Source: Camelus ferus (taxonomy: Eukaryota). Taken from it: DNA of 64,000 nt. This document shows positions 4,501 through 62,599 of the stretch, one piece after another; the first letter of the stretch is position 1; every line of letters begins with the position of its first letter. A program made the position numbers and the translations under genes. The notes beneath the pieces are model-generated. The model worked only from the letters and a program-made list of their open reading frames with translations. It was not told where the DNA came from and searched no databases. The stretch covers positions 60,762,001 to 60,826,000 of the forward strand of contig NC_045696.1 of assembly GCF_009834535.1 (NCBI RefSeq), given 5' to 3'.

Positions 4501-7500
4501 ACAATGTTTTTTTAAGCTTCCTTCCTCATAGAACTGGTTAAAGGGAAGAAATCATAACATAGTGACTATAAAGAGTGAGCAGGATAAGAAAAAGAAAAGT
4601 CTAACGCGCAGGTTTGTGGAAGGGGTGGGTCATCTGCAATCTATTTCCCATCTCCTTTCAACAGATTCTCTTGTCTTTGCCATGTTCCAAGGACAGGAAC
4701 TAATCATTTCAGAGCTCCTCGACCTGGTCTGGCTTTCTCCTCATTTCTAGACATTCTCCTACTGTAATCCTAAGTTTCTTACCTCTGAACCAGCTGGAGT
4801 AACTCTCTCATCTCAGCTCTAACTGCTAATGGCTCAATCACTGTTCATCTCTTGGACAATGAGATGGTAATAGTTTCTTATAGTTAACTCTGAGATTAGG
4901 CCTGAGGATGGGAACTTCATCAGAACCACCTATTTGTAGACTAGCAGTCCTCTAATCCTAGCCAAAGAAATTTAACAATAACAACAAAATTAAGTCATCC
5001 TACCAGCTTCACATTAAAAGCTGACTAAGAGTATTCAACACTATATTTACTACATACCGTATCAGAAGCACCTAAGATCTTTTATCATTTCGAATAATTC
5101 ACTGTGCATTACCATTATAACTGCAGAAAACTCAGCTGGCTCACAGGAATTCAGTGAAAAGAGTTAACATAGCAGGCCCGAGATGGCCACTCTTTCAAAG
5201 TCCTGTTTGCAAGGACAGCCTTCAGCTGGTGTCTGGGAACTGGTTTCTTCCAGGCGTTGCCCACTGCCCCTTTTCCTTTTGCTGATTCTGCTTTGTATCT
5301 TTTCCCCTTAACAAAGCTTAGTCACAAGTACAACTAGAGGCAATCTTGTGTCTCCTAGAGAATCATTAAATCTGGGGGTGGTCTTGGACACCCCCAACAC
5401 AAGTATTAACCTTCCAAAACTCATCCTCTACTTATATCCCAAGCCTGCAGGATTTGGGAAAGAAAGGAAATTAAATTTTAGATGTGAAGAAATTTTGAGC
5501 TGTAAAGTGAATGTAGCCCTCTGTTTTCAACCAGACCATGGAACAGGCAAAGGGTTAAAACAGTTTCATTTGAAAAATATCTCCTGTTGAGAAAATGAAA
5601 CATGGCATATTTCAAAATGTCAATCAGTCATAAAATCTCATAGGTCATTTAATTAAAATATCATAGACCATAGGTCAAAGCTTTCATGGAAAGTTCATGA
5701 ACTCTGCTTTTATAACTCTTAGAAGTGGATCATCAACCTCAGTTTGCACACCTTCATTAGTAGGGAACGCACTCTTCTAGAGACAGTCCTTTCCATTCCC
5801 CTCCTGATTCTAAAGGATTTAACCAGAATCTGTCTCCCTACAACTTCAGTTCTACTCTCTGGAGTCTCAAAGAATGAGCAAAATATCCCTGTGAGAACCA
5901 CTGTCTTTGCCAGCCTGTCTTCCTATCTCACCTTGTGAGTGTGTATTTGTGGATCCTTGCACCTTTCTTTGCTTTGTGGGTGTGTCAATCCCTTCTTTGA
6001 GCTTCTTTTCCAGTGTCTTTCCCTCTCTTGCACTTCACCTAGTTATAATATAACTAAAATATACTTAATTGCTTTTTGTATTCAATGAACATAATTTTTA
6101 CTCTTAATTTAAAAAATCAGTGGTTGAAACATTAACTTTTTATAAACTTCAATGACTTTTTTTGTGTGCAAGTCAGAGGTTCTTCACATAGAAAGCTTTC
6201 TCACCCTCACTCTTACTGAAGGGAGGTAAACTTGTTACCTCCCTTCAGTTTCTAACAGTGGAATTGCAATTAGAAGAGAAGACACTCAACCTGTTTTAGA
6301 GCTTCCTTGAAGGGAATTTTCAACATCTTGTAAGAAAAATCTCTCTCTTTATTCCAACCAGAGAGACTACTCACCCAGGGGTAGAGTTCGGGTCAAGTTA
6401 GCAGCTGGAGGATCTGTTTCTGGAGGACAGAGTTCACAGAAGTCCCAGCATGATGGGCAGAGCAGGTTTCCATCGTGAATCCAGCCATTCATCTGAATAC
6501 TGACGGGGAGGACCTGCCCGGCCCGACTACACAAATATGAAGTATCCTGAACCCAAACCTTCAGACCTTGTGGAGAACAAGAAACCTTCAAAAAGTGGGA
6601 AAAAGAATCAGATCAGTAAGATTCTAGTATGTGAGGCTTCTCCTTCAACTGTAGGAAAATATGGTAGAATTTACTAAAAATGCTGGCTATAAAACACAAT
6701 TGGGGATAAGGGAATATTTAAATCTCATACAAAGAGGGTTAAGTTATTCAGGTTGTAAAAGAATTTCACTCTGTGGTAGTAGTTCTTAAACTTTGACCAC
6801 AGTACCTTTTAAAAAATCTTAATAAAATCTATGGACACCTTTCCTAAAAAACACAAGGTAATATGCCACATTACATACAGTTTGAATCCACAGAACCCTA
6901 AAGACAAGGCATTAATAACAACATTTCTGTAGGGGTTCGGTTCCGGTCAAGATGGCAGAGTGGTAGGACCACGAGCTTGCCTCTCCTCGCGACTACAATG
7001 AAACCACAACTGAATGCTAAACAACCATCGAAAAAAGACTGGAACCTAGCAAAAAAGATCTTCTGCAACTGGAAACATAAAGAGGGAACCACAGCAGGAC
7101 AGTAGGAGGGACGTGCTCATGATATAATTGGGCCCCATAACCCCTCGGGTGGGCAACCCACAAGCTGAAGATTTGTTAAGTCGCAGAGGCCCTCCCACAG
7201 GAGTGAGAGCTCTAAGCCCCACGTCAGGCTCCCCAGCTTGGGTCCCGGCAGTGGGAAGAGAAGGAGACCCCAGGACATCTGGTTTTGAAGGTCAGGGGGG
7301 CGTGGCTCAGGGAGTCCCACGGGACTGAGGGAAACAGAGGCTCCATTTGCTTAAGAAGCATACAAGGAAACTCACATGCACCAGGTCCAAGGGCAGAGGC
7401 AGTGATTTCATAGGAACTTGGGCCAGACCTGCCTGCTGGATTTGGAGGGTCTCCCGGGGTGGTAGAGGACGGCTGCGGCTCACTCAAGGGACATAAAAAC

Positions 7501-9188
7501 TGGTGGTGGACATTCCGGGAGTGTTAATCTACATGAGCTTGCTTGGAGGCTGACATTTTGATTGGATCATTAGCACCAACACCGAGCCCCAGCCAACAGC
7601 CTGTAGGGAAGCCTCAGGCCAAACAGCATACAGGGTGGGAACACAGACACACCCACTAGCAGACTTCCTAAGCCACAAAGGCCTCTAGACACGGCCCTAC
7701 CCACCAGAGGTCCAGGACCAAGCTTCACCCAGCAGTGGGCAGGCACCAACTCCTCCTGCCAGGAAACCTGCATAAGCCTCTAGTCCAGCCTCATCCACCA
7801 GGGGCAGATACTAGAAACAAGAAAACAATAATCCCAAAGGCTGTGGAAGGAATCCACAAACACATAGAAAGAAATATGAGGTGGTAAAGGAATATCTCCC
7901 AGGCCAAGGCACAAGATAAAATCCCAGAAGAAGAAATAAGTGGTGAGAAGGTAGGTAATTTATCTGAGAAAGAGTTTAAAATAATGATGGCCAAGATGTT
8001 CAGAGAACTCAAGAGGAGTATAGATGCACAGAGTGAAGTTTTTAGCAAAGAGTTGGAAAATATAAAGAATACCCAAACAGAGTTGAAGAATAAAATCACT
8101 GAAATGAACAATACACTAGAAGGAACCAAGAATAGACTAAATGAGGCAGAAGAAGGGTTCACTGAGCTAAAAGACATATTAGTGAAAATCACTACTTCAG
8201 AACAGAAAAAAGAAAAAAGAATAAAAAGGAATGAGGATAGTTCAACAGAACTCTGGGACAACATGAAGTGCTCTAATATTCACATTATAGGGGTCCAAGA
8301 AAGAGAAGAGAGAGAGAAAGGACCCAAGAAAATTTTTGGAGAGATAATAACTGAAAACTTCCCCAACTTGGGAAAGGAAACAGTCACCCAAGTCCAGGAA
8401 GACCAGAGAGTACTACACAGAATCAACCCAAAGAGGAACACATCAAGGCATCTAGTCATCAAATTGACAACAATTAAGGATAAGGAGAAAATATTAAAAT
8501 TAGCAAGAGAAAAGCAACAAATAACATACAAGGGAACTCCTATAAGGTTATCAGCTGATTTTTCAGTAGAAATTCTATAAGCCAGAAGGGACTGGAAAGA
8601 TATATTTAAAGTGATGAAAGGGAAAAACCTACAACCAAGAATACTCTATCCAGCAAGGTTCTCAATCAGACTTGATGGGGAAATCAAAAGCTTCACAGAT
8701 AAACAAAAGCTAAATGATTTCAGCACCACCAAACCAACTTTAGAGCAAATGTTATAGGACCTACTCTAGTCATCAAACCATAAGAAATGAGAACAAAAAA
8801 AGAAAGAGAAAAAAAAAAGAGACCTACAAAAGATTGCTTTGGCTGTTTGGGGTCTTTTGTGGTTCCTTATAAATTTTGGAATTGTTCCAGTTCTGTGAGG
8901 AATGTCGCGAGTATTTTGATGGGGGTTGCACTGGATCTGTGGATTGCTTTGGGTAGTGTGGCCATTTTGATAGTGTTGATTCTTCCAATCCAAGAGCATA
9001 AGAAATCTTTCTATTTCTTTGTGTTATTTCGGTTTTCGGAGTATAGGTAACCTCCTTGGTTAAGCTTATTTCTAGGTGTTTTGTTGTTTTTGATGTAATG
9101 GAAATGTCTCTGCCAGTTATAAAATTCTGGGTTTTGAAGTGAAAAAAAAAAAAAGTGAATGAAGGGCCGCAAATGGCAAAATATTCCA

Positions 9189-9227
<39 letters not shown>

Positions 9228-11653
9228 TACACTGCATCTCTATTATCTATTCAACTATTGATGTACACTTAGGATGCTTCCATATCTTGGCAATTATAAA
9301 TAACTTTGCTGTTAATAACAGGGCGTATGTATCTTTTTGAGTTAAATCTTATTTTGTGGTTGGCTTTATTCCTTTGATAACTATGTAAGTTTAAAAAGCT
9401 AAAGTTCTAAACATTCTTAGAAACAATGAACAGTATATATATGTAAATTCAAAAATACATGTGCAGTTAAAACAAAAAAACTTATCACGCCATGAAAGAC
9501 ATATTACTAAATGAAAGAAGCCAGCCTGAAAAGGCTACAACTGTACGATTCCAACCAAATGACGGTTTGGAAAAGGCACAGCTACAGAAACAATAAAAAG
9601 ATTGTGGTTTCCAGAGGTTTGGGGAGAGGGAGGGAGGGAGAAATGAATAGATGGAGCACAAGGGATTTTTAGGGCAATGAAATTATTCTGTATGATACTA
9701 TAGTGGTGGCTACATGCATTATGCATTTGTCAAAACCCACAGAATGTACAACATCAAGAGTAAACCCTAATGTAAACTATGGACTTTGGTTGATAATAAC
9801 ATACCCATGTTGGTTCATCAATTGAACCAAATATGCCACACTGGTGAGGGATGTTGAAGGTAGGGGATTATATATGGGTGGGTGGGGCGGACTATGTGGG
9901 AACTCTGTATTTTCTGCTCAATTCTGCTGTAAACATGAAACTGTTCTAAAAAAAGTAATGTCTATCAAAAAAAAATTTCTGTAGATTCTAGTATCCTCCT
10001 TTATTTCAGCTTAAATCTCTGTCAAAGCCATTAACCATGTCATTTTTTTGTGCAAGTCACTATATTTTGTAAATCAAAATTTTATTAGTTGTTTTAAAAA
10101 ATAATATATGTTAATTGTAAAAAAAAAAAAAAAAAAAGAAACACAACAGAGAAATGACATAGTGATAGTTATTCTTTTTCTCTATCCCAGACCCTCTGGG
10201 ATAGAGATAAAAATGTTCATGATGATTACATTATGAGTACAACTGATAACATCTTTAAAGGCAGGACTCATATCTCAAATACAAGGGGTAAATAATAAAA
10301 TCAATTTTTAAAAGCAAACATATTAAAACTAACAAAAAATGTTTAAAATGACTGTATCTTCTTCAATGTTGTTTTCTAAAAGGACTTCACATTAATTTCA
10401 ATTATGCTACGTCACTTTAAATATTTCTGAAACTTCAGTGCATGCTTCTGAATATGTTTGATGGTGACAAATTTTTACTTTGCAAGTAGATGTAAATTTT
10501 GAAAATACCCAAAAGTCGCCAAGAACCAAGTCTAGTTAAAGGCAGTTCATTAAACTGGTTAAGACTAGGTCAACAAAGGTCTTAATTTCCAAATATACAA
10601 ACAGCTCATACAACTCAATAACAACAACAACAAAACAACCCAATCAAAAAATGGGCAGAAGATTTAAACAAACATTTCTCCCATGAAAAGAAGATTAACA
10701 TCATTAATTACCAGAGAAATGCAAATCAAAACTACAATGAGATTATCACCTCACACCAGTCAGAGCCATCATTCAAAAGTCCACAAGCGATAAATGCTGG
10801 AGAGAATGTGGAGAAAAGGGAATTCTCCTACACCACTGGTGGGAATGTAGTTTGGTGCAACCATTATGGAAAACAGGAGATTCCTCAAGAAACTAAACAT
10901 AGACTTACTACACAATTCAGCAATCCCATTTTTCAGCATATATTCAGAGGGAACTCTAATTCAAAAAAATACATGCACCCCAATGTTCATAGCAGCACTA
11001 TTTACAACAGCCAAGACATGGAAACAACCTAAATGTCCATCGACAGATGACTGGATAAAGAAGTTGTACTGTATTTATGCAATGGAATACTACTCAACCC
11101 TAAAAAAGAATAAAACAATGCCATTTGCAGCAACATGGATGGAACTGGAGATTGTCATTCTAAGTGAAGTAAGCCAGAAAGAGAAAGAAAAATACCATAT
11201 GGTATCACTTATATGTGGAATCTACAAAAAAGACAAATGAACTTATTTACAAATCAGAAACATATTCACAGACACAGTTTACAACACTGTAAACTGATTA
11301 TACTTCAATAAAAAATTTTTTTAAAAGATGTGGCATATAGATACAATAGAATACCTCCCAGACACAAAAAAGAATGAAATAATGCCATTTTTAGCAACAT
11401 GGATAGAACTGGAGATCATGCCAAGTGAAATAAGCCAGAGAAAGAAAGAAAAATATCATGATACCACTTACATATGGAATCTAAACAAAGGACACAAATG
11501 AATTTATTTACAAAACAGAAACAGACTTACAGACACAGAAAACAAACTTATGGATACCAGGGGGAGAAGGGAGGAGTAAGGGATAAATTGGGAGTTTGGA
11601 ATTTGTAGATACTAACTTGTAATGGCCTATAATGGAAAAGACTATGAAAAGGA

Positions 11654-27078: not shown

Positions 27079-30000
27079 TGTGTGTGTATCCTTTGACTCA
27101 GAAATTCCATTTCCAGGAATTCATCCCTTCTCTTTCTATATAAACAAACTTTTTAGTTCTGCTCCCTTGGAAACCTAATAAAGGTGGAATGTCAACTGTG
27201 TTACCAGGCAACAGGATGCAAAGCAAGAAGACCACCTGCTATGCCTCTGGACTTGGGATTACTATAAATGAACATGAACACCTATTGGCAAACAGTGTGG
27301 GACTTCTCTGTTTGCAGTGACTCTTATGGGTATGTCTCTTACAGGCATCTGGAAGTTATGTCTATGAAGCTGTTAAAAAGAATGTTGGTTCTTATTTGGG
27401 ACACAGTACTTCTAAGCCTGGCTGGTTCTTACACCCCTCTGATACTTAAGACTATTCTTGTGCTTATGGTATTTGAGCTGGAGGGGGAGGGAGAGAGGCC
27501 CAGATGATAGCCCCCAGACTACTGTGTAGAGCACAAGAGAAATGCCTGTCTCTGCAATGCTGGCATGCTGTACTTTCTTGTACCCTTCTAATGTATTTTC
27601 AGTGTGACCTGTTTAGGTCTTATGAGCTTGACTGATGGTTTAGTTGAACCTAAGAACACCCACTGGAATGCCACTCCTGTAAGGCACTGCAGATATAAAT
27701 AAATCGCTCATCACATTTTTAGAATAAAAAATTTAAAGTATAGTCATTCATTCACATGCGACTATGTTACATTCATATAATATAATACTACATAGCTGTT
27801 AAAAAATAAATAGATCCAAGTATACAATCTATTCTACTGAAGCATATATTTCTGTAATGTGAATGAGCTCATGTGAGACTGGTAAAGGAATAGCATCAGT
27901 GTAATATGGAGTTATGTTGGTTCATAATGATTTCTCCCTGGATTTTAATGTTTTGTGCAGTGGAGTAATAGTAGCTAAATACAACGTACACTAAGACAGC
28001 CAAAAGCAGCAACAGAGGAAGGCTGTGCTGGGCATTGTGCCCAGTCACTCTGTGTTCTTCCAATTGACTCAGCATGGCCAGAGGCTGTCTTAGAAGTGTT
28101 TGTTGCATGATTCTCTAACCTTTGTACATTTTACTCTTGTCCTCATTATTCAGATTTATAATTCTTTAAGCTTTAAGCTCTAAAAACTATATATAATTGA
28201 TGATTTATCTATCTACCATTGCTTTTTGCTGTTAAAGAAACACTAAATCTAGGAGTTTATTTATTGAAAACATGTATATTTTAAAAATAAGCTACTACTT
28301 TTATTATGATTTAGTGCCTTTGTTAATAATCTGGTATTTGTGTTTTCCACAAGCCTTGTTATCTTTAGTGTTCGATTTGGAAAAAAGGGGTTTTTTAGGA
28401 CAGCATACATTGTATTACAGCAGAAGCACCTAAACTGCCTTGGAAATACGTCTAAGATATATGAGTGAAAAAAGTTGCATAAATGTATGAACCGATTAAA
28501 AAAAAAACAACCATGTGTTAGTGTGTCTGTCAGTCTGTCTATCTATTTATCTAACATTTCCAAAAGGATATTAAAAAAATTAAATAGTGATTACATCTGG
28601 AAAGTGCGTCTGGAGAGCTAAAGGGGAAAATGAACTTTTTAATTTTTCACTTGATAACCTATCATACATTTGAGTAAGAATTACTTTTATTAAAGAAAAA
28701 ATGCAGAGTAAAATTTTAAAATAAACTAACCTCTAATAACCTTTTTTCCCAATGGTTGAGCTCAGTGCCCATACCACCTTGGTTTTCAAGTTCCATTCCC
28801 TCCAAAATTGGACAGTTAAAATGTTTTCGTGCTTCATCCTAAGAATCAGGAAAATAAATAAATAAATATACCCTACAAAAGTACAATAAAATAATGGCAA
28901 ACTATTTATCACACTGGATATAATAAAGTATAATAAAATACATTTAATATAATTTTTCATATAATTAAAATATTTTGATACTACATTACTATTAAAGTAC
29001 TATTGCTATTAAATTACTATTTTTCAAGGATTTCTGATCAAGATGGCGGAGCAGTAGGACCACAAGCTTACCCCCAATAATGACTACAACAAAACCACGA
29101 CTGACTGCTAAACAATCAACAAAAAATAAGACTGGAACCTAGCAAAAAAGATCTTCGTCAACTGGAAACATAAACAGGGAACCTCAGCAGGATGGTATGA
29201 GGAGTGTGCTTGTGATATTATTGGGACCCATACCTCTGGGGTGGGCAACCCACAAGCTGAAAAATAATTAAGTTGCAGAGGCCCTCTAGTAGGAGTGAGA
29301 ATTCTAAGCCCCACATCAGGTTCCCCAACCCAAGGTTCTGGCATTGGGAGGAGGAGACCCCAGAACATATGGTTTTGAAGGCTAGCAGGGCTTAACTCCA
29401 GGAGCCCCACTAGACTTGGGGAAAACAGAGACTTCACTCTCTTGGAAAGTGCACACAAAATCTCACATGTGCCAGGTCCAAGGGCAGAGGCAAGTGATTT
29501 CATAGGAACTTGGGTCAGACCTGCCTGCTGATTTTGAAGGTCTCTTGGGGAGGTAGAGGACAGCTGTGGGTCATCCTGGAGACATAAAAGCTGGTGGCAG
29601 ACACTGCAGGAGTGTTCATCTACATGAGCTTTCTTGGAGGCTGACATCTTGCTTGTGTCATTAGCACCAAGACCTAGCCCCACCCAACAGCCTGTAGGCT
29701 TAAGTGCTGGGAAGCCTCAGGCAAATAACATACTGGGTGGGAATGCAGCCCCAATCATCAGCAGACCCCCTGAGCTACAAAAATCTCTAGACACAGCCCT
29801 ACCCACCAGAGGTCCAGGACCAAGCTTTACCCAACAGTAGGCAGGCACCAACTCCTACTGCCAGGAAACCTGCACAAGCCTCCTGTCCAGCCTCATCAAC
29901 CAGGGGGCAGATACCAGAAATAAGAAAACAATAATCTCAAAGTTTATGGAAGGAATCTGCAAACACAAGCCAGACTACCCTGGGAAGAGCTGGATGCTGG

Positions 30001-33000
30001 CCCTTGGGTGACGAGACGAGTGTACTGCTGGGATACATAGGACGTCTCCCACAGAGGACCACCTCTCCAAGGTCAAGAAATGTAACTAACCTACATAAAA
30101 ATACCAACAGAAATTTACACAATATGAGGTGGCAGGAGACTATATTCCAGGCAAAGGCACAAGATAAAATCCAGAAGAAGAAATAAGCAATGAGGAGATA
30201 GGAAATCTATCCAAGAAAGAGCTTTGAGTTACAATTGTGAAGAGGTTCAGAGAACTCGGGAGGAGAATGGATGCACAGAGCGAAGCTTTTAGCAAAGAGT
30301 TAGAAAATATAAAGAATACTCAGAGTTGAAGAGTACAATTACTGAAATAACACAATAGAAGGAATCAGGAATAGACTAAATGAGGCAGAAGAATGAATCA
30401 GTGAGCTACAAGACAGATTAGTGGAAATCACTACTTCAGAACAGAAAAAAGAAAAAAGAATGAAAAGAAATGAGGGTAGTTTAAGAGAATTCTGGGACAA
30501 CATGAAGCGCTCTAATATTCACATTATAGGGATCCCAGAAAGAGAAGAGAAAGAAATGACCTGAGAAAATATTTGAAGAGATAATAACTGAAAACATCCC
30601 TAACGTGGGGAAGGAAACAGTCACCCAAGTCCAGGAAGTACAGATTCCATACAGGATTAACCCCAAACAGGAACACACCAAGGCATGGTAATCAAATTGA
30701 CAAAAATTAAAGATAAGGACAAAATATCAAAATCAGCAAGAGAAAAGCAACAAATTAACACAAAAAGGAACTCCCGTAAGGTTATCAGCTGATTTTTCAG
30801 GAGAAACTCTACAGGCCAGAAGGGAATAGCATGATATATTTAAAGTGATGAAAGGAAAAAACTTACAACCAAGAATACTCTACCCAGCAAGGCTCTCATT
30901 CAGATTTGACAGAGAAATCAAAAGCTTCACAGATAAACAAAAGCTAAAAGAATTCAGCACCACCAAACCAGCTTTACAAGAAATGTTAAAGGAACTTCTC
31001 TAGGTAAAAAAAGAAAAGGCCACAACTAGAAACAAGAAAAGTAGTCATGAAGGGAGAAGGGTACAATGCAGGGTATCGAAAATGCATTTGAAATTAAGAG
31101 ATCAGCAACTTAATTATGTATATACAGACTTCTAAACCAAAACCTCATAGTAACTGCAAACCAATGTAACTCCATAGTCATCAAACCACAAGACAATAAA
31201 AACAAAGAGGAAAAAAGACCTACCAAATTACTATTTCTTTCAATATTTTTTCGTCTGTTGAAGATTTTGACTTTAAGTCATATATATTTCAAAAAAGTAA
31301 TAGGGTAGTATGATTACATTTGTAACTTTTGTGTCAACAATGCTTTTAATGTAGGTGTGACCGCTCTTATTATGGATATAGGCTTTGTGGGGAAAATAAG
31401 TTGTTTAAAAGAAAACACTTTTGCTCATTTGGTTCTGTCTGTCCTTCAGTTAGAGATTTCCAAGAATAGGAAATATCCCAAGAGCAGTGCAAAAGTTTAG
31501 AAGTCAGAGAGAGCTGTGTGTAACCAAGGAATAGAGAAGGGAGAATAGGTTTCTGTCATTAAATAAGAGGGTATGATGATTAATTTTATGTGTCAACTTG
31601 GCTGGGCCACAGTGCCCAGATATTTGGTCAAACATTATTATGAATGTTTCTGTGAAGGTCTTTTTGGGTGAAATTAACATTTACATTAATGGACTTTAAG
31701 TAAAGCAGATCACTTTCTATAATATAAATGGGCTTCATCTAATCAGTTGAAGACCTTTACAGATCAAAGACAGACTCACCCCTGAGCAAGAAGGAGTCCT
31801 ACTAGCTGACTGCCTTCAGACTTAAACTGCAACTCTTCCCTGAGTCTTCAGCTTGCTAGCCTACCTCACCAGATTCTGGACTCTCCAAACCTCCCCAACT
31901 ACGTGAACCAACCTTAAAATAAATCTCTCTCTCAACACATCCTGTTGGTTCTGTTTCTCTGGAGAACTCTGACTAAAACAGATTTCAGCTGAAATGACCA
32001 GCAATTATGCAAATAGTACCGGTGATCCTAAGAGGTATCACAACACACCACTAGTGTCACAACCTAAAGTAGTTGGTAGAATGGAGCTATAAGAGTCACT
32101 GCCAAATTTCTATTTCCTCAAATTTTTCATGGCCTGTAGCTTTACTGTACTGCCTTAATATTATCTTTCCTACTATAAGCTTTCAAATGTAATCATTAGT
32201 TCTTAAACAATAATGATTAGTAGACCATAATGAATGAAAAGAACAGACGGCTCCTGAGACAGGAAGCTCTGTAATACTCACGACAACACGAGGTGTTACT
32301 AGAAGATACACAGTGTGAGGAACTCTCTTATTATCTCGAACATCCCATGATCTCTCTACTTTTCGAACTACTTTATCACTCCACTGATATAATCCAAGAC
32401 TGCAATTAAAGAATAAAATGTCAGTTTTTACACATTCACCTCTACTTTAAATGTAAGTGTGTTTATGAGTATCAATATGAAATTTAACTATCTGAGTTTA
32501 CTGAACATAAGAGCATGCAAAGTTCTTGATAGTATTTTCTAATTTAATCTTTTCAACAACTTTATTATCATCACTATTTTGCAGATAAAGAGACAGAAGC
32601 TTAGAGAGATGAAGTAACTTACTCAAGTTCAAATAGCTAATATTTGGCTAAGATGACAATGAATTACTTCCTCTTAACAAATTTACTCGATAAAATAAAA
32701 GCATTCCCAGGGACATACCCAAGCACTGAATATAAGAAACTGTAATAAACAAAAAAAATGGAATTTTTAATTTAGTGGGAAACTATAATTTACTTAATAA
32801 CTGTGCTATAAAATCAGTTTATCCATTTAGGAAAAAAAAGTTTCAGCTCACATACAGAAATAAATTTCAGACAAATATCAGCAAAAGTGACAAAATAAGG
32901 ACCTCTGAAAATTTTCTACTTCATGAAAGCAATGAGAAAAGTAGCAAAATTGGCCAAATCAACTTTTTTTTAGAACTCTGGAAATTAACCAAAGACTTGC

Positions 33001-45000: not shown

Positions 45001-48000
45001 TAGTGCCCGCAGGTCTACGGACCTGAAAAGTCTTCTCTAAATAATAAACAGCTTGTGGGAAAAGTTTGTTCTAAATAAAAGTGGAAAAAAACCAGTCAGA
45101 ATTACTGCCAAAAGATGAATTATATTTATAACAAGCAAGCATAGGATATTCATGACTAAGGGGAAAGAAGGAAAAGGCCTTATAATTCTGGAATACAGAT
45201 ACTAGTTAGATACAAGTTCACATTTGATATTAAGTTAGCCTTCTCATTTTATAACTTGATAAATATATTGGTGAAAAGTATAAATATATTCACTACTAAC
45301 ATCTTTTATTCAGTCATTCACAAAATAGTCATGTATATATTCCTCATTACTGAAGTAAAATTTACATACAACAAAATCCACCCATTTTAAGTATTCAATT
45401 CAAGCCATGAGTACTTATTACATACCTTTACAAGGTATCTTTTCTCAGGGAGCAACCTGAAAATATAATGACATAAAACATAAAAATTGCCATGCTAAGG
45501 GCAGAGTACAGTCTCATTTGTTCAGAATACATCTGGCAGGAGCCCCAAGGAATGCTTTGTGGAAACATGCAGTACCAGTCCCCTCAAATCTCAGTTTACC
45601 TCAATGAGCATTTAAGAGTTTATTCTGTGCCAAAACACAACGCCAGGCATGATAACATACTGCTTCATTTCTTCGGAAAATTAAAGATAGGGAAAGACAT
45701 CAATTACTCCTAGTACCTGTTTAAAAACTACTACAGATTCATTATTTTACCTGCTTTCTGGACTCCCCTTACACTAAACTAAAAATTAGGCTACATCATC
45801 TCTCTGGTTAATAACTTCATAAATATTCTCATTATTGTATACATTAGTACTTCCTCTTATTTTCCTCCAAGTACTTATTGTGGAAGTGCCTTCTAGGTCT
45901 GTTACTGACCAAATCCAAGTAGATATACACTGGTTCTGTTTAAATTATTCATGATGTGTAGAGTCAAACCATATCCTATGGCATTCATCTTTCCAAACTA
46001 AAAAGCATATTTAGCTTAATTCCATTTTGAGGGTGCATTAGCACCTAGTTCCATCTATGGAACTCTAGGTAACAGATGAAACTATCTTCAATAGTTTGAT
46101 TCTTAATTTAAAAAGATGACAAAATAATGGTGTACTTACTCTTCAATACTTTTATCATAGACAATCTTGATTCTTAAATGTTCATTAATATCTCTCTTTA
46201 CAACATGATTTGCCTTAAGATGGACCTTATTTATCACCTGAAAAAAAAAAAAGGAATAGATTTGGGGGGAAAAAAGTATAGATTAGCTAATTGAGGTCCC
46301 AACTTAAAATTAATAAACTAAAGCACAGAGAGTACCACACAGGGTCAACCCAAAGAGGAACACATAGTTATGAAACGGACAAAAATTAAGGATAAGGAGA
46401 AAATATTAAAATTAGCAAGAGAAATGCAATAAATAACATACAAGGGAACTGACAAGGTTATCAGCTGATTTTTCAGCAGAAAATCTACAGGCCAGAAGGG
46501 AATGGCAAGATATATTTAAAGTGATGAAAGGGGAAAATTTACAACCAAGAATACTCTATCCAGCAAAGCTTCTGTTCACATTTGAGGGAGAAATCAAAAG
46601 CTTCACAGATAAACAAAAGCTAAAAGATTTCAGCACCAAACCAGCTTTACAACAAATGTTAAAGGAACTTCTCTAGTCATCAAACCATAAGGAAAGAGAA
46701 CAAAAAGAAGAAAGAAAGAAAGACCTACAAAATACTGCTTTGGCTGTTTGGGGTCTTTTGTGGTTCCTTATAAATTTTGGAATTGCTTGTTCTAGTTCTT
46801 TGAGGAATGTCATGAGTATTTTGACATGGGTTGCACTGGATCTGTGGATTGCTTTGGGTAGTGTGGCCATTTTGATAGTGTTGATTCTTTCAATCCAAGA
46901 GCAAAGAAATCTTTCCATTTCTTTGTGTCATTTCGGTTTTCGGAGTATTTCTAGGTATTTTGTTGTTTTTTATGCAATAGAAATGTTTGTGCCAGTTATA
47001 AAATTCTGGTTTTTGAAGTGAAAAAAAAAAAAAGTGAATGAAGGGCCGCAAATGGCAAAATATCCTTCTTTCTTATAGGTGAGTTGTATTCCATTATATA
47101 ATACGTATATACTGCATCTTTATCTATTCAACTATTGATGTGCACTTAGGATGCTTCCGTATCTTGGCAACTGTAAATAATGTCGCTGTTAACAGCAGGG
47201 TGTATGTATCTTTTTTAATTAATTCTTATTTTTTGGTTGGCTTTATTCCTTTGATAACTATGTAAGTTTAAAAGCTAAAGCTCTAAACATTCTTAGAAAC
47301 AATGAACAGTACATATATGTAAATTAAAAAATACATGTGCAGTAAAAAAAAAAAAAGAAATGAGCTATCAAACCATGAAAGATCTAGAAGAAACTTAAAA
47401 GACATATTACTAAATGAAAGAAGCCAGTCTGAAAAGGTTACAGACTATATGATTCCAACCAAATGACATTCTGGAAAAGGGAAAGCTACAGAAACAATAA
47501 AAAGATAATGATTTCCAGGGGTTTGGGAGAGAGAGGAGGGAAAGAATAGATGGCACACAAGGGATTTTTAGGGCAATGAAATTATTCTGTATGATTCTAC
47601 AGTGGTGACTACATGTCATTATGCATTTGTCAAAACCCATAGAATATACAACATCAAGAGTGAACCCTAAGGTGGAGGGGGGTGGGAAAGGACAGACTGG
47701 GAGTTCAAAATTTGTAAATACTGATAGGCATATGCAGAATAGATAAACAAGATTACACTGTATAGCACAGGGAAATATATACAAGATCTTGTGGTAGCTC
47801 ATAGTGGGAAAAAAATGTGACAATGAATATATGTATGTTCAAGTATAACTGAAAAATTGTGCTCTACATTGGAATTTTACACAACATTGTAAAATGACTA
47901 CAACTCAATAAAAAAAAGTTTAAAACAAAAAAAAAAGAGTGAACCCTAATGTAAACTACGGACTTTAGTTGATAGTAATGTGCCCATGTTGGTTCATCGA

Positions 48001-51000
48001 TTTTATCAAATATGCCACATTGATGAGGGATACTGAGGGTAGAGGAGTATATATTTGTGGGTGGGGAGGGCTATGTGCAAACTCTCTGTATTTTCTGCTC
48101 AATTCTGCTGTGAACCTGAAACTGCTATAAAAAATAAAATCTATTAATAAAAAATTAATAAACTAAATTTCAAGTGTAACACTCCCCCCCCCCAAATAAA
48201 AGAACTAAATAAATGGAGAGACAGTTCATGCCCATGGATGGGAAGACTCAAATATTATCAAGATGTCAATTCTTCCCAACTTCATCTATAGATTAAATGA
48301 AATCTGAATCATAATCCCACAAATTATACTGTGAAATGTCAACAAACTGATTCCAAAGTTTATATTAAGGGCAAAAGACCCAGAATAGCTAACAAAATGT
48401 TAAAGAAAAAAAACAAAGGTGAAGGACTGAGAAAACCTGACCTCAAGATTTACTATAAAATTACAGTATCCAGACAGTGTGATACTGGCAAAAGAGAAAC
48501 AAATAGATCAATGGAACACAATAGAGAGCCCAGAAATAGATCCATAGAAATACAGTCAACTGGTCTTTGACAGATTTTGGCCAAAATCTGGAACACATAC
48601 AACACCAAATGCTGGCCAAAGATGTGGGGCAGCAGAAACTGTTATTCATTGCTGGTGGGAATACAAAATGTACAGCTACGCTGGGAGACAGTTTGGCAGT
48701 TTCTTACAAAATTAAACATATTTTTACCATAACTACCCAGTAATCATGCTCCTTGGTATTTACTCAAATGAGTTAAAAACTTACAGCCACACAAAAACTT
48801 GTTTACAGATGTTTATAGCAACTTTATTCATAACTGCTACAACTTAAAAGCAGCCAATGTGTTCTTCAGTATGTGAATATATAAATAAACAGTGGTAAAT
48901 CCAGAAATGGAGTATTATCCAGAGCTAAAAAGATGACCTATGTACCTTTCGCATCTGGGTAGTCTCGTCTAACAATTCCTCTATAGAAAAAGAAAAAAAA
49001 AAAAGATGACCTATGAAGTTATGAAAAGACATAGAGTAACCTTAAATACTTCTCAGTAAGTGAAAGAAGCCAATCTGAAAAGATTACATACTATATGATT
49101 CCAACTATATGACATTCTGGAAAAGGCAAAATTATGACAGTAAAAAGATCAGTGTTTGCCAGGGAAGGAAGGGTGGGAATGAATAGGTGGAGCACAGATG
49201 ATTCTGAAGGCAGTGAACTACCCTGTATGATACTGTAATGATGGTTACATGTCAGTATACATTTGTCCAAACCCACATAATGTACAGCACCAAGAGTAAA
49301 CCCTAATTTAAACTGTAGACTTTGGGTGGTTATGACGTGTCAACACAGTTTCATCAGTTGTAACAAAAGTACCACTCTGGTTGGGAATGCTGTATGCATG
49401 TAAAGAGGAACAGGGTATTTGGGAAATCTCTGTACCTTCTTCATAATTTTACAGTGAATCTAAAACTGCTTTTAAAAATTAACTAATTTTTAAAAAATGA
49501 AGATAGAAGACAATGGAACACATAGTTCAAGTGTTAAAAGAAAGCTGTTCAACACTTAAGTCTGTATCCAGTGAAACGCCTCCTCAAAAAAGAAGAGGAA
49601 ATACAGATATTTCAGATACACAGAAATGGAAAGAATTCATCAACAGCAGACCCCTACCACAGGAAACACTAAAGGAAGTTCTTTTTGGTAACAGAAATGA
49701 CACTAGATGGTACCTCGGATCTTGTCTTAGCTCAGGCTGCTGTAACAGAATATCACATACTGGTGGCTTATAAACAACAGAAATTTATTCCTCACACTTC
49801 TGGAGGATGGCAAGTCCAAGATCAAGGTACTTGAAGTCTGGGTGTCTAGTGAGGGCCCAATTCTTGTTTCTTAAGGCCATATTCTCAAATTTTCATTGTA
49901 GCCCCTGGCAGAAGGGGCCAAGAGCTCTTTCATACAGGTATTAATCTCATTCCTAAGGGCTCTGCCTTCAAGACCTAATCATCTACCAAAGACCTCACCT
50001 CTTAACCATTATGCTGAGAGTTAGGATTTCAACATATGAATTTGGGGGGGAAACAAACATTCAGTTTATACCAGGTCTATATGAAGGAATGAAAACAACT
50101 GGAAATGATATATAAGTAAATATAAGGCTATTGTGCATAAAACAGTTAATATAGCAGGCCTCTGCCTGCTATCTTTAGAAAGGCCTACTTGCAAATTTGA
50201 CCTTTCACTGGTCAAAGAACTTGAATGGAAAATAGTTCCCCTACAGTGATATAAAACTTCCCTAAGTGATAAGGGAGTCTCATTGTGCCAAAACTGTTAA
50301 TAGAAATAATATAGTTTATGCTGAACATTTGTTTACTTCTCAGAGCCAGGAATGTTAGTGAGTGAAAAGGTGCCTACATGACCAATCTCCAACAAAAACC
50401 CTGGGCTCCTAGACTCAGATGAGCTTCCCTGCAGACAACATTTTGTGCTTGTTGTTACAAATTACTGCTGAAGGGATTAAGCATGTCCTGTGTGATTCCA
50501 CTAGCAGAGGACTCTTGGAAATGAGGAAAATTCAATTAACAAGTTAAGAAGAAGAAAGGGAATTTTATTCAAGTCAAACTGAGGATTATAACCTGGGAGA
50601 CACACTCTCAGAAGTTCTGAGAGCTGTTCCTTCTACCTGTTAGAAGTCAAAGGCACAGTCACATACATTTTCAAGAAAGGATCGTACATCAAAATGACAT
50701 AGTGATATTTTACACAAAGTTCACCAAAGATATATAGTCCAGGTAAGTACACACAAAGCCAAAGCAAGCATCAAGTCACTGTGACCCCCTACAGAGTTGG
50801 GAAAGAACGCTATTCTTTTAAGAAATTACATTCCTAGTACCAGAAGAAAGGGAAAAACTGATCTTTTTGGTTGAGCAGGCATTTCCATCTTTGAGGAGGC
50901 CTGGTTAATGTGTAATGCAGATGCACACAGGGAGGGAGGGAGGAAGCCCAAAAAGACAGAGAGAACTTTATGTTTAGATTTTCTGGTCCTGCCTTAAAAT

Positions 51001-62011: not shown

Positions 62012-62599
62012 CTTTAAAACAAACAAAAATAATCAGTTTAAAACCTTGCAAAGTGCATTTCCCACGTAGTCTCCTCCGGAAAAGCACCCCAAATTCAGAG
62101 ACTGCCTGATAGCTAAGCAAACTCCAAAATGAAGACAAAAACAAAAAGTGGCAAGGCTCCACACTAAAATCACTGACTGAACCAAATATGCTACATGGAT
62201 GAGGGAGAATGAGAGTAGGGAAGTATGTATATGTGGGTGGGGAGGGCTATGTTGGAGCTCTGTATTTTCTGCTCAATTCTGCTGTAAATCTAAGACAATT
62301 CTAAAAAAATTAAGTCTATCAAAAACAAAAGACTCCACACCAAAAGAAGTAACTCCTAGAAATCCCAAAGGAAGCCTTAAAAATAATTCATGCCATCCAT
62401 GATCAGCCAAAAAAAGGAGTCAAAAGCACACAGAAAGTAAGTTTTAAGCACTGAACGCAAAAGAAAAGCTAAGGAAAGACTGGGAACAAGCCAAACCAGG
62501 TTTGGAGTAGGAGTAAATGGACAATGAACCTTGCCTAAAAGAGCCACTGCTTCAGAAGGGGAACTGCTGCCAGACAAAATGCATCTACTTCCCTCCCCT

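Follow-up and report, generated by a model that had tools for sequence, protein, structure and literature searches.

HAL1 (half-L1) elements are derivatives of the L1 retrotransposon that carry open reading frame 1 (ORF1) only, and they have been described as having arisen independently several times in mammals (PMC5753468, PMC5322556, PMC5786205, PMC13756887, PMC4859970). Two routes to a HAL1 have been put forward in these accounts so far, namely internal deletion (PMC5786205) and 3' truncation (PMC4859970). Also described are 3'-truncated L1 insertions without poly(A), attributed to internal priming of reverse transcription on an A-rich stretch of the template (PMC4859970, PMC5322556); the human set given in PMC5322556 comprises 90 3'-truncated against 708 full-length L1s. 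Here we analyse a 64-kb window of the Camelus ferus genome (NC_045696.1, 60,762,001 to 60,826,000; all positions below are counted within it), a stretch of mammalian DNA rich in L1 debris that holds four related L1-derived insertions on the plus strand, in the order A, C, B and D. We show that copy C (29028-31224) is a single tailless insertion that is not established as a member of a HAL1 family, and that A, B and D belong to a HAL1-type family with a mosaic 3' tail. Both kinds, the element and the tailless insertion, are already known. What sets copy C apart from the tailless L1s described before is that its 3' end falls at the point where the spacer of a HAL1-type family joins the tail.

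Copy C consists of an L1 5' untranslated region (UTR), a broken ORF1 and an inter-ORF spacer. Its 5' UTR (29028-30123) is complete at the 5' end, is 83% identical to that of copy A over 904 columns and is, by eye, homologous to the 5' UTRs of the pig consensus sequences L1A1 and HAL1_SSc. Toward its end it contains about 145 nucleotides (nt) that copy A does not have (29965-30120, in two gaps of 128 and 17 nt). The ORF1 (30124-31003), which like that of copy A is an L1 ORF1 by homology (E 3e-16), is dead, with eight indels relative to copy A and several stops. The spacer, 221 nt long, closes with the motif gacctac (31217-31223) and a single C (31224), so that the 3' end proper is 31217-31224, and the 3' target-site duplication (TSD; 31225-31243) follows at once. 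This repeat aligns with the 5' TSD at 29011-29027 with 17 of 17 matches and one 2-nt gap, and the 5' TSD is preceded by TT, giving an L1-endonuclease-like site (TT/AAAT). Its score was reached by none of 5000 AT-matched 30-mers drawn from the window, the boundaries having been set by eye before the test, and its 12-nt core occurs on the plus strand of the window only twice, in the two TSDs themselves. Between ORF1 and the TSD there is neither ORF2 nor poly(A). The original prediction, in which copy C was described as 5' UTR, ORF1 and inter-ORF sequence terminating at gacctac next to a TSD, with neither ORF2 nor a poly(A) tail, is thus confirmed.

Under the definition given in PMC5322556 (TSD of 8-35 nt, at least 70% identity, no oligo(A)), copy C is a tailless L1, being 5'-complete and 3'-truncated and having a TSD and no oligo(A). 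Like the insertions described there, it would end at an A-rich stretch of its template; its target site TT/AAATTAC matches the consensus TT/WAAAAWW reported for them only in part. With HAL1 it shares the L1 5' UTR and ORF1, the absence of ORF2 and the TSD, but not the poly(A) that PMC5322556 includes among the HAL1 features, since one base alone separates gacctac from the TSD. It is also seen as a single copy, and the segments found only in copy C occur nowhere else in the window.

In contrast, copies A, B and D have the features by which HAL1 is described, being L1-derived, multi-copy and TSD-flanked, with ORF1 only and an A-rich 3' end. Copy A (6933-9974, 3042 nt) is full-length and comprises 5' UTR, ORF1, a short spacer, the mosaic tail and an A-rich end within a 10-nt exact TSD (10 of 5000 null draws); its ORF1 (7876-8769) has three premature stops and no frameshift. 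Copy B (46322-48150) is 5'-truncated inside ORF1, lacks the 5' UTR and is flanked by a 16-nt exact TSD (0 of 5000). The 5'-truncated copy D (62170-62328), absent from the original prediction, consists of the 3' end of the same tail within a 17-nt TSD with two mismatches (4 of 5000); its distance from copy A (0.196) is near that of copy B from copy A (0.183). All three end in A-rich remnants, and ORF2 is represented in the tailed copies by inverted fragments only.

The tail opens with an inverted ORF2 piece (minus strand; 8828-9110 in A, 46727-46990 in B) that includes ORF2 residues 801-861. A second inverted piece (minus strand; 9165-9350 in A) corresponds to about residues 1189-1217 and beyond, near the end of ORF2; its protein match is weak when taken alone (E 0.06), and it is 73% identical to a sense L1 piece at 10957-11131. 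An unassigned AT-rich stretch separates this piece from the last segment (plus strand; 9490-9974 in A), in which an older, L1MC-like L1 contributes its 3' end in sense orientation, followed by the A-rich end. No single L1 is collinear with this tail, given its older 3' end and its two inverted pieces, which do not stand in their ORF2 order. The spacers of A and B lack the same 174 nt, and both copies have the junction and the tail in full; their TSDs differ. The junction recurs in a public protein of 149 residues (P0122), which reads the tail of another copy in antisense and crosses the junction in the form seen in copy A; its frame ends where the frames of A and B end, whereas that of copy C does not, and it is probably a spurious gene call on a repeat. 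Propagation as a unit is therefore seen in the structure shared by A and B, in the 3' end of D and in the junction within P0122, and the three copies form a HAL1-type family of a kind already known.

Three minor features of the tailed copies may be recorded here. A (CA)n microsatellite (9191-9224) replaces part of the second inverted piece in copy A only. The tail of copy B is interrupted by a nested L1 3' end of 264 nt (47671-47934) with a 15-nt TSD (47656-47670 and 47935-47949), which resembles a camelid L1 3' end. Directly downstream of copy B lies an older, deleted sense L1 (48198-49500; ORF2 pieces and a 3' end), whose 3' end (49049-49500) is of the same general type as that of the tail and 73% identical to it in copy A.

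The coincidence between the end of copy C and the start of the tail is real, although its precision was overstated when it was called exact. The motif gacctac stands at 8821-8827 in copy A and at 46722-46728 in copy B, and in both it is followed by four A's and then by antisense ORF2 corresponding to residues 801-861 of human ORF2p (E 2e-13). Because the four A's fit the spacer and the ORF2 antisense strand alike, the end of copy C and the switch into inverted ORF2 lie 0-4 nt apart. Nor does copy C equal copy A stripped of its tail: its spacer is longer by 174 nt and its 5' UTR by about 145 nt. Copy B has no 5' UTR.

The spacer provides the clearest indication of relative age. For the 174-nt segment that copy C retains and A and B have lost (31001-31174), homology by eye is to the long spacer in the pig L1A consensus, with a 21-nt exact match to L1A7 in the consensus sequences of PMC6501411. 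Since this segment is present in pig L1, A and B lost it, and copy C cannot descend from the A/B form; judged by the spacer, copy C represents an older type than the other two, and the order of the C-type spacer before the A/B-type spacer holds on this comparison. The deleted form is found in all three tailed copies in which the spacer can be read (A, B and the source of P0122) and the long form in none. The segment is flanked by TAG repeats, and when taken as 31004-31177 it reads GT...AG in copy C with an acceptor that has no pyrimidine tract, so the deletion may have occurred by splicing or by microhomology. The additional 145 nt or so of 5' UTR are absent from the pig L1A1 and L1A7 consensus, and three motifs taken from them were not found in the pig consensus file.

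Decay after insertion may differ between A and C. In the 5' UTR, 13 CpG sites are kept in A and lost in C as against two in the reverse state (p 0.007), and the eight indels in ORF1 compare with none, which together suggest that copy C is more decayed than copy A; ORF1 CpG sites (0 vs 3) give no sign of greater decay in C than in A. Each of the eight A-C indels either disrupts the reading frame of C or is located there (p 0.004 if an even split is assumed), and the ORF1 frame of copy A is intact over 297 codons despite three stops and neutral-looking substitutions.

As to how copy C arose, internal priming is the most likely fit to its end. In the sequence of events that we consider, the L1 endonuclease would nick the TT/AAAT target, the T-rich end would prime on the A-tract that closes the inter-ORF spacer in place of poly(A), and reverse transcription would run to the 5' end, leaving 5' UTR, ORF1 and spacer between TSDs. 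The template would be the RNA of a parental full-length L1 type that predates the 174-nt spacer deletion. A second, separate event at the same A-tract would have inserted into an older antisense L1 ORF2 fragment, where the founder's own promoter would read through the flank as far as an old L1 3' end; the read-through RNA, with ORF1 in cis and ORF2 borrowed in trans, could then have become the HAL1-type master element from which A, B and D derive. Copy C itself would be sterile and belong to no short family. The TSD of copy C abuts its end without poly(A), whereas A, B and D retain A-rich ends, and this supports priming, as does the A-tract that follows the end point in A, B and pig L1. By eye, the corresponding position in full-length pig L1 precedes an A-rich tract, with ORF2 starting about 25 nt further on. 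The TSD of copy C opens with AAA, and pairing with the template can be counted over 3-4 nt at most. We rejected a longer pairing between this TSD and the tail's first bases, as the idea was based on the copy B junction, which is mutated according to copy A and P0122. We therefore hold, as a tentative preference that falls short of being probable, that copy C is a dead-on-arrival tailless insertion from full-length L1 RNA and a sterile sibling of the tailed founder; the ranking of this template against the alternatives below is a matter of judgement.

Several observations weigh against this reading. A single tailless copy is seen, and the results are compatible with a full-length template and with an early tailed template alike. 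Two independent events are needed at one A-tract, while the spacer of copy C offers seven other runs of at least four A's and a full L1 RNA many more, and the base pair to the left of the founder's junction is not visible. The spacer of copy C has, by eye, deletions of its own relative to pig L1, which would suit a non-autonomous source. The substitutions are of little help as well. In the third of ORF1 common to the three copies, pairwise distances give a star-like picture (A-B 0.124, A-C 0.136, B-C 0.131). Polarised by eye, the sites that group A with B number six of eight with pig L1A1 as outgroup (p 0.02), three of seven with pig L1A7 (p 0.43) and three of five where both outgroups agree (p 0.21), so that substitutions appear to support an early branching of C only weakly. 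At the protein level A and B share one change in 93 codons against 56 homologues, the outgroup kept after redundancy removal from the best 120 of 674 matches among 1094 candidates. The closest of these 120 are about 60-67% identical to the copies, with no near parent among them. Changes in which one copy is the odd one out number 17, 15 and 17 with ratios of nonsynonymous to synonymous substitution (dN/dS) of 0.88, 1.01 and 0.88, and A vs C gives 0.79, values that point to ORF1 substitutions being mostly decay after insertion. By these near-equal values, the sources of A, B and C were almost identical in ORF1, and copy C dates from near the start of the tailed family. Reportedly, ORF1 is kept functional in the source element of a HAL1, a view ascribed to Bao and Jurka in 2010.

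The near-equality of the ORF1 sequences, with copy C as near A and B as those two are to each other, would also suit a different template, namely the RNA of an early tailed HAL1 with a long spacer and the same tail, reverse-transcribed from the A-tract that precedes the tail. The shared end point would then merely reflect the A-tract, which is retained at the A/B junction, and a tailed RNA offers just 15 runs of at least four A's past ORF1, so that the use of this one is not very surprising; the extra deletions seen by eye in the copy C spacer relative to pig L1 fit such a source too. A tailed form with the long spacer should, however, far outnumber its tailless by-products, and yet none of the three readable tailed copies has it, so that we regard this derivation of copy C as possible but somewhat unlikely. 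An origin of copy C in a short ORF1-only family with its own 3' end would require no coincidence at all, as copy C would be a member with a decayed poly(A) and another member would have founded the tailed family. The hexamer AATAAA lies 24 nt upstream of the 3' end of copy C (31195-31200), at the canonical distance for polyadenylation, and PMC4859970 names premature polyadenylation among the processes that could give rise to HAL1 and to L1 RNAs with ORF1 only. Nevertheless, copy C has no poly(A) whatsoever, yet the similarly diverged A, B and D have kept their A-rich ends, and the founder junction has four A's at most. The hexamer, moreover, is not in A or B and differs by a single transition from pig L1A7, which has AACAAA at this place, so it may postdate the insertion. 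We consider such a family unlikely. The original proposal that copy C ended by internal priming or premature polyadenylation accordingly fares better in its first part than in its second, which the missing poly(A) disfavours in spite of the hexamer.

A copy C that had been inserted with a tail, either the mosaic one or a full ORF2, and had later lost by deletion everything from the spacer A-tract to the poly(A), with the TSD left intact, would account for the same structure. In the sequence of copy A, runs of A at both ends of such a deletion offer microhomology, and copy C is by its indels and its 5' UTR CpG loss the most decayed copy; but at least 1.1 kb would have had to be lost, taking all of the poly(A) and not one base of the TSD, which makes this very unlikely. 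That the flanking repeat is there by chance and copy C is an ordinary eroded L1 fragment draws on the AT-rich flanks and on the 2-nt gap in the repeat. Given that no AT-matched control reached the score and that the repeat adjoins both ends of the element, this is extremely improbable.

The founder of the tailed family can be considered whatever the template of copy C was. On the ORF2 sense strand the junction reads TCTT, followed by GA if the L1 codons continued (the GA being deduced from the codon); PMC4859970 includes TCTT/AA in its list of L1 endonuclease sites and gives TCTC/AG for an L1 that was internally primed. Together with the non-collinear tail, whose debris fits a captured flank better, this motif speaks for a tailless insertion into old L1 debris with subsequent read-through rather than for an internal deletion of the kind described in PMC5786205, and we consider such a founder fairly probable. 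Copy C as the founder itself was ruled out, as its downstream flank matches the tails over at most 22 nt. The original prediction had proposed that an ORF1-only form came first and then gave rise to a read-through founder. The older type of copy C and a junction that fits read-through agree with this proposal, but neither the existence of the short form as a family nor its priority is established, because one copy is not enough to reveal a pile-up of ends and an early tailed RNA would give the same end. That the short form came first and founded the tailed family is no more than plausible.

A comparable element has been described in pig. HAL1_SSc (L1A6, PMC6501411) has a homologous 5' UTR lineage and an ORF1, and its spacer is, by eye, likewise cut in the A-rich part; after the cut its consensus runs on into unrelated sequence that closes with the 3' end of an L1 and poly(A), with a total of 3016 nt as against 3042 nt for copy A. 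The cut lies earlier in the spacer than in A and B, HAL1_SSc keeps the part that they have deleted, and the tail is a different one without an inverted ORF2 start. These differences argue for an independent origin, and the common layout lends support to the founder route described above.

The first inverted piece also bears an unusual set of changes. Of the 13 changes shared by A and B in it, eight read T-to-C along the sense strand of ORF2 and hence A-to-G along the strand that the element transcribes, counted by eye over 156 columns in which A equals B and at sites that agree in pig L1A1, L1B1 and L1A7. The cluster spans 8828-9010 in A and 46727-46927 in B; seven of the eight T-to-C changes alter conserved residues, and P0122 has the same residues. 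T-to-C at eight of 36 sites compares with A-to-G at one of 63 (p 0.001, or p 0.03 and 0.10 if a two-fold or three-fold transcription-linked bias is allowed for). The neighbour preference is in the direction of ADAR enzymes without reaching significance (p 0.06), on a tally of ten sites that includes two native in pig L1A7. By eye, the second inverted piece has no A-to-G bias. No partner with which the inverted piece could pair in cis was found in A, B or C, where the best matches are at most 20 nt, so that L1 mRNA would have to serve as the partner in trans. We noticed the pattern post hoc, and the outgroups are distant. According to PMC8677026, L1 RNA co-expressed with ADAR2 showed no A-to-I changes, and no report of edited L1 copies fixed in a family was found in the literature, which is weak evidence of absence. 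Judged from these alignments, the cluster may represent fixed A-to-I editing, a possibility toward which we lean less than away.

If tailless copies cluster at the spacer A-tract with the tailed copies nested among them, internal priming with read-through would constitute a third route to HAL1, and if the A-to-G cluster is due to editing, the tail would preserve a trace of base-pairing between a non-autonomous RNA and its helper. A more far-reaching scenario joins the two. The spacer A-tract would be a priming hot spot that produced many sterile C-like copies, one of which fell into antisense ORF2 and read through as far as an old L1 3' end; its RNA, with a stretch of about 280 nt antisense to the helper L1 mRNA, would have paired with that mRNA in trans, been A-to-I edited and become the master, with the edits fixed in all copies seen. 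We consider this scenario distinctly improbable.

Wider comparisons were made as well. No camelid HAL1 was found named in the literature, and HAL1 is not mentioned in the main text of PMC8605555, although repeat libraries may still have one. Scans with the ORF1 protein confirmed none of 101 genome contig candidates and neither of two viral contig candidates. A scan for the junction motif gave no match in viral contigs, five loci in prokaryotes and two in metagenomes; none of these seven loci matches the window, and the hits are attributed to chance. One bacterial contig from a metagenome-assembled genome (L002 and L003) contains the motif three times (1633, 3001 and 4369), at a spacing of 1368 nt, and this is a tandem repeat unrelated to the window.

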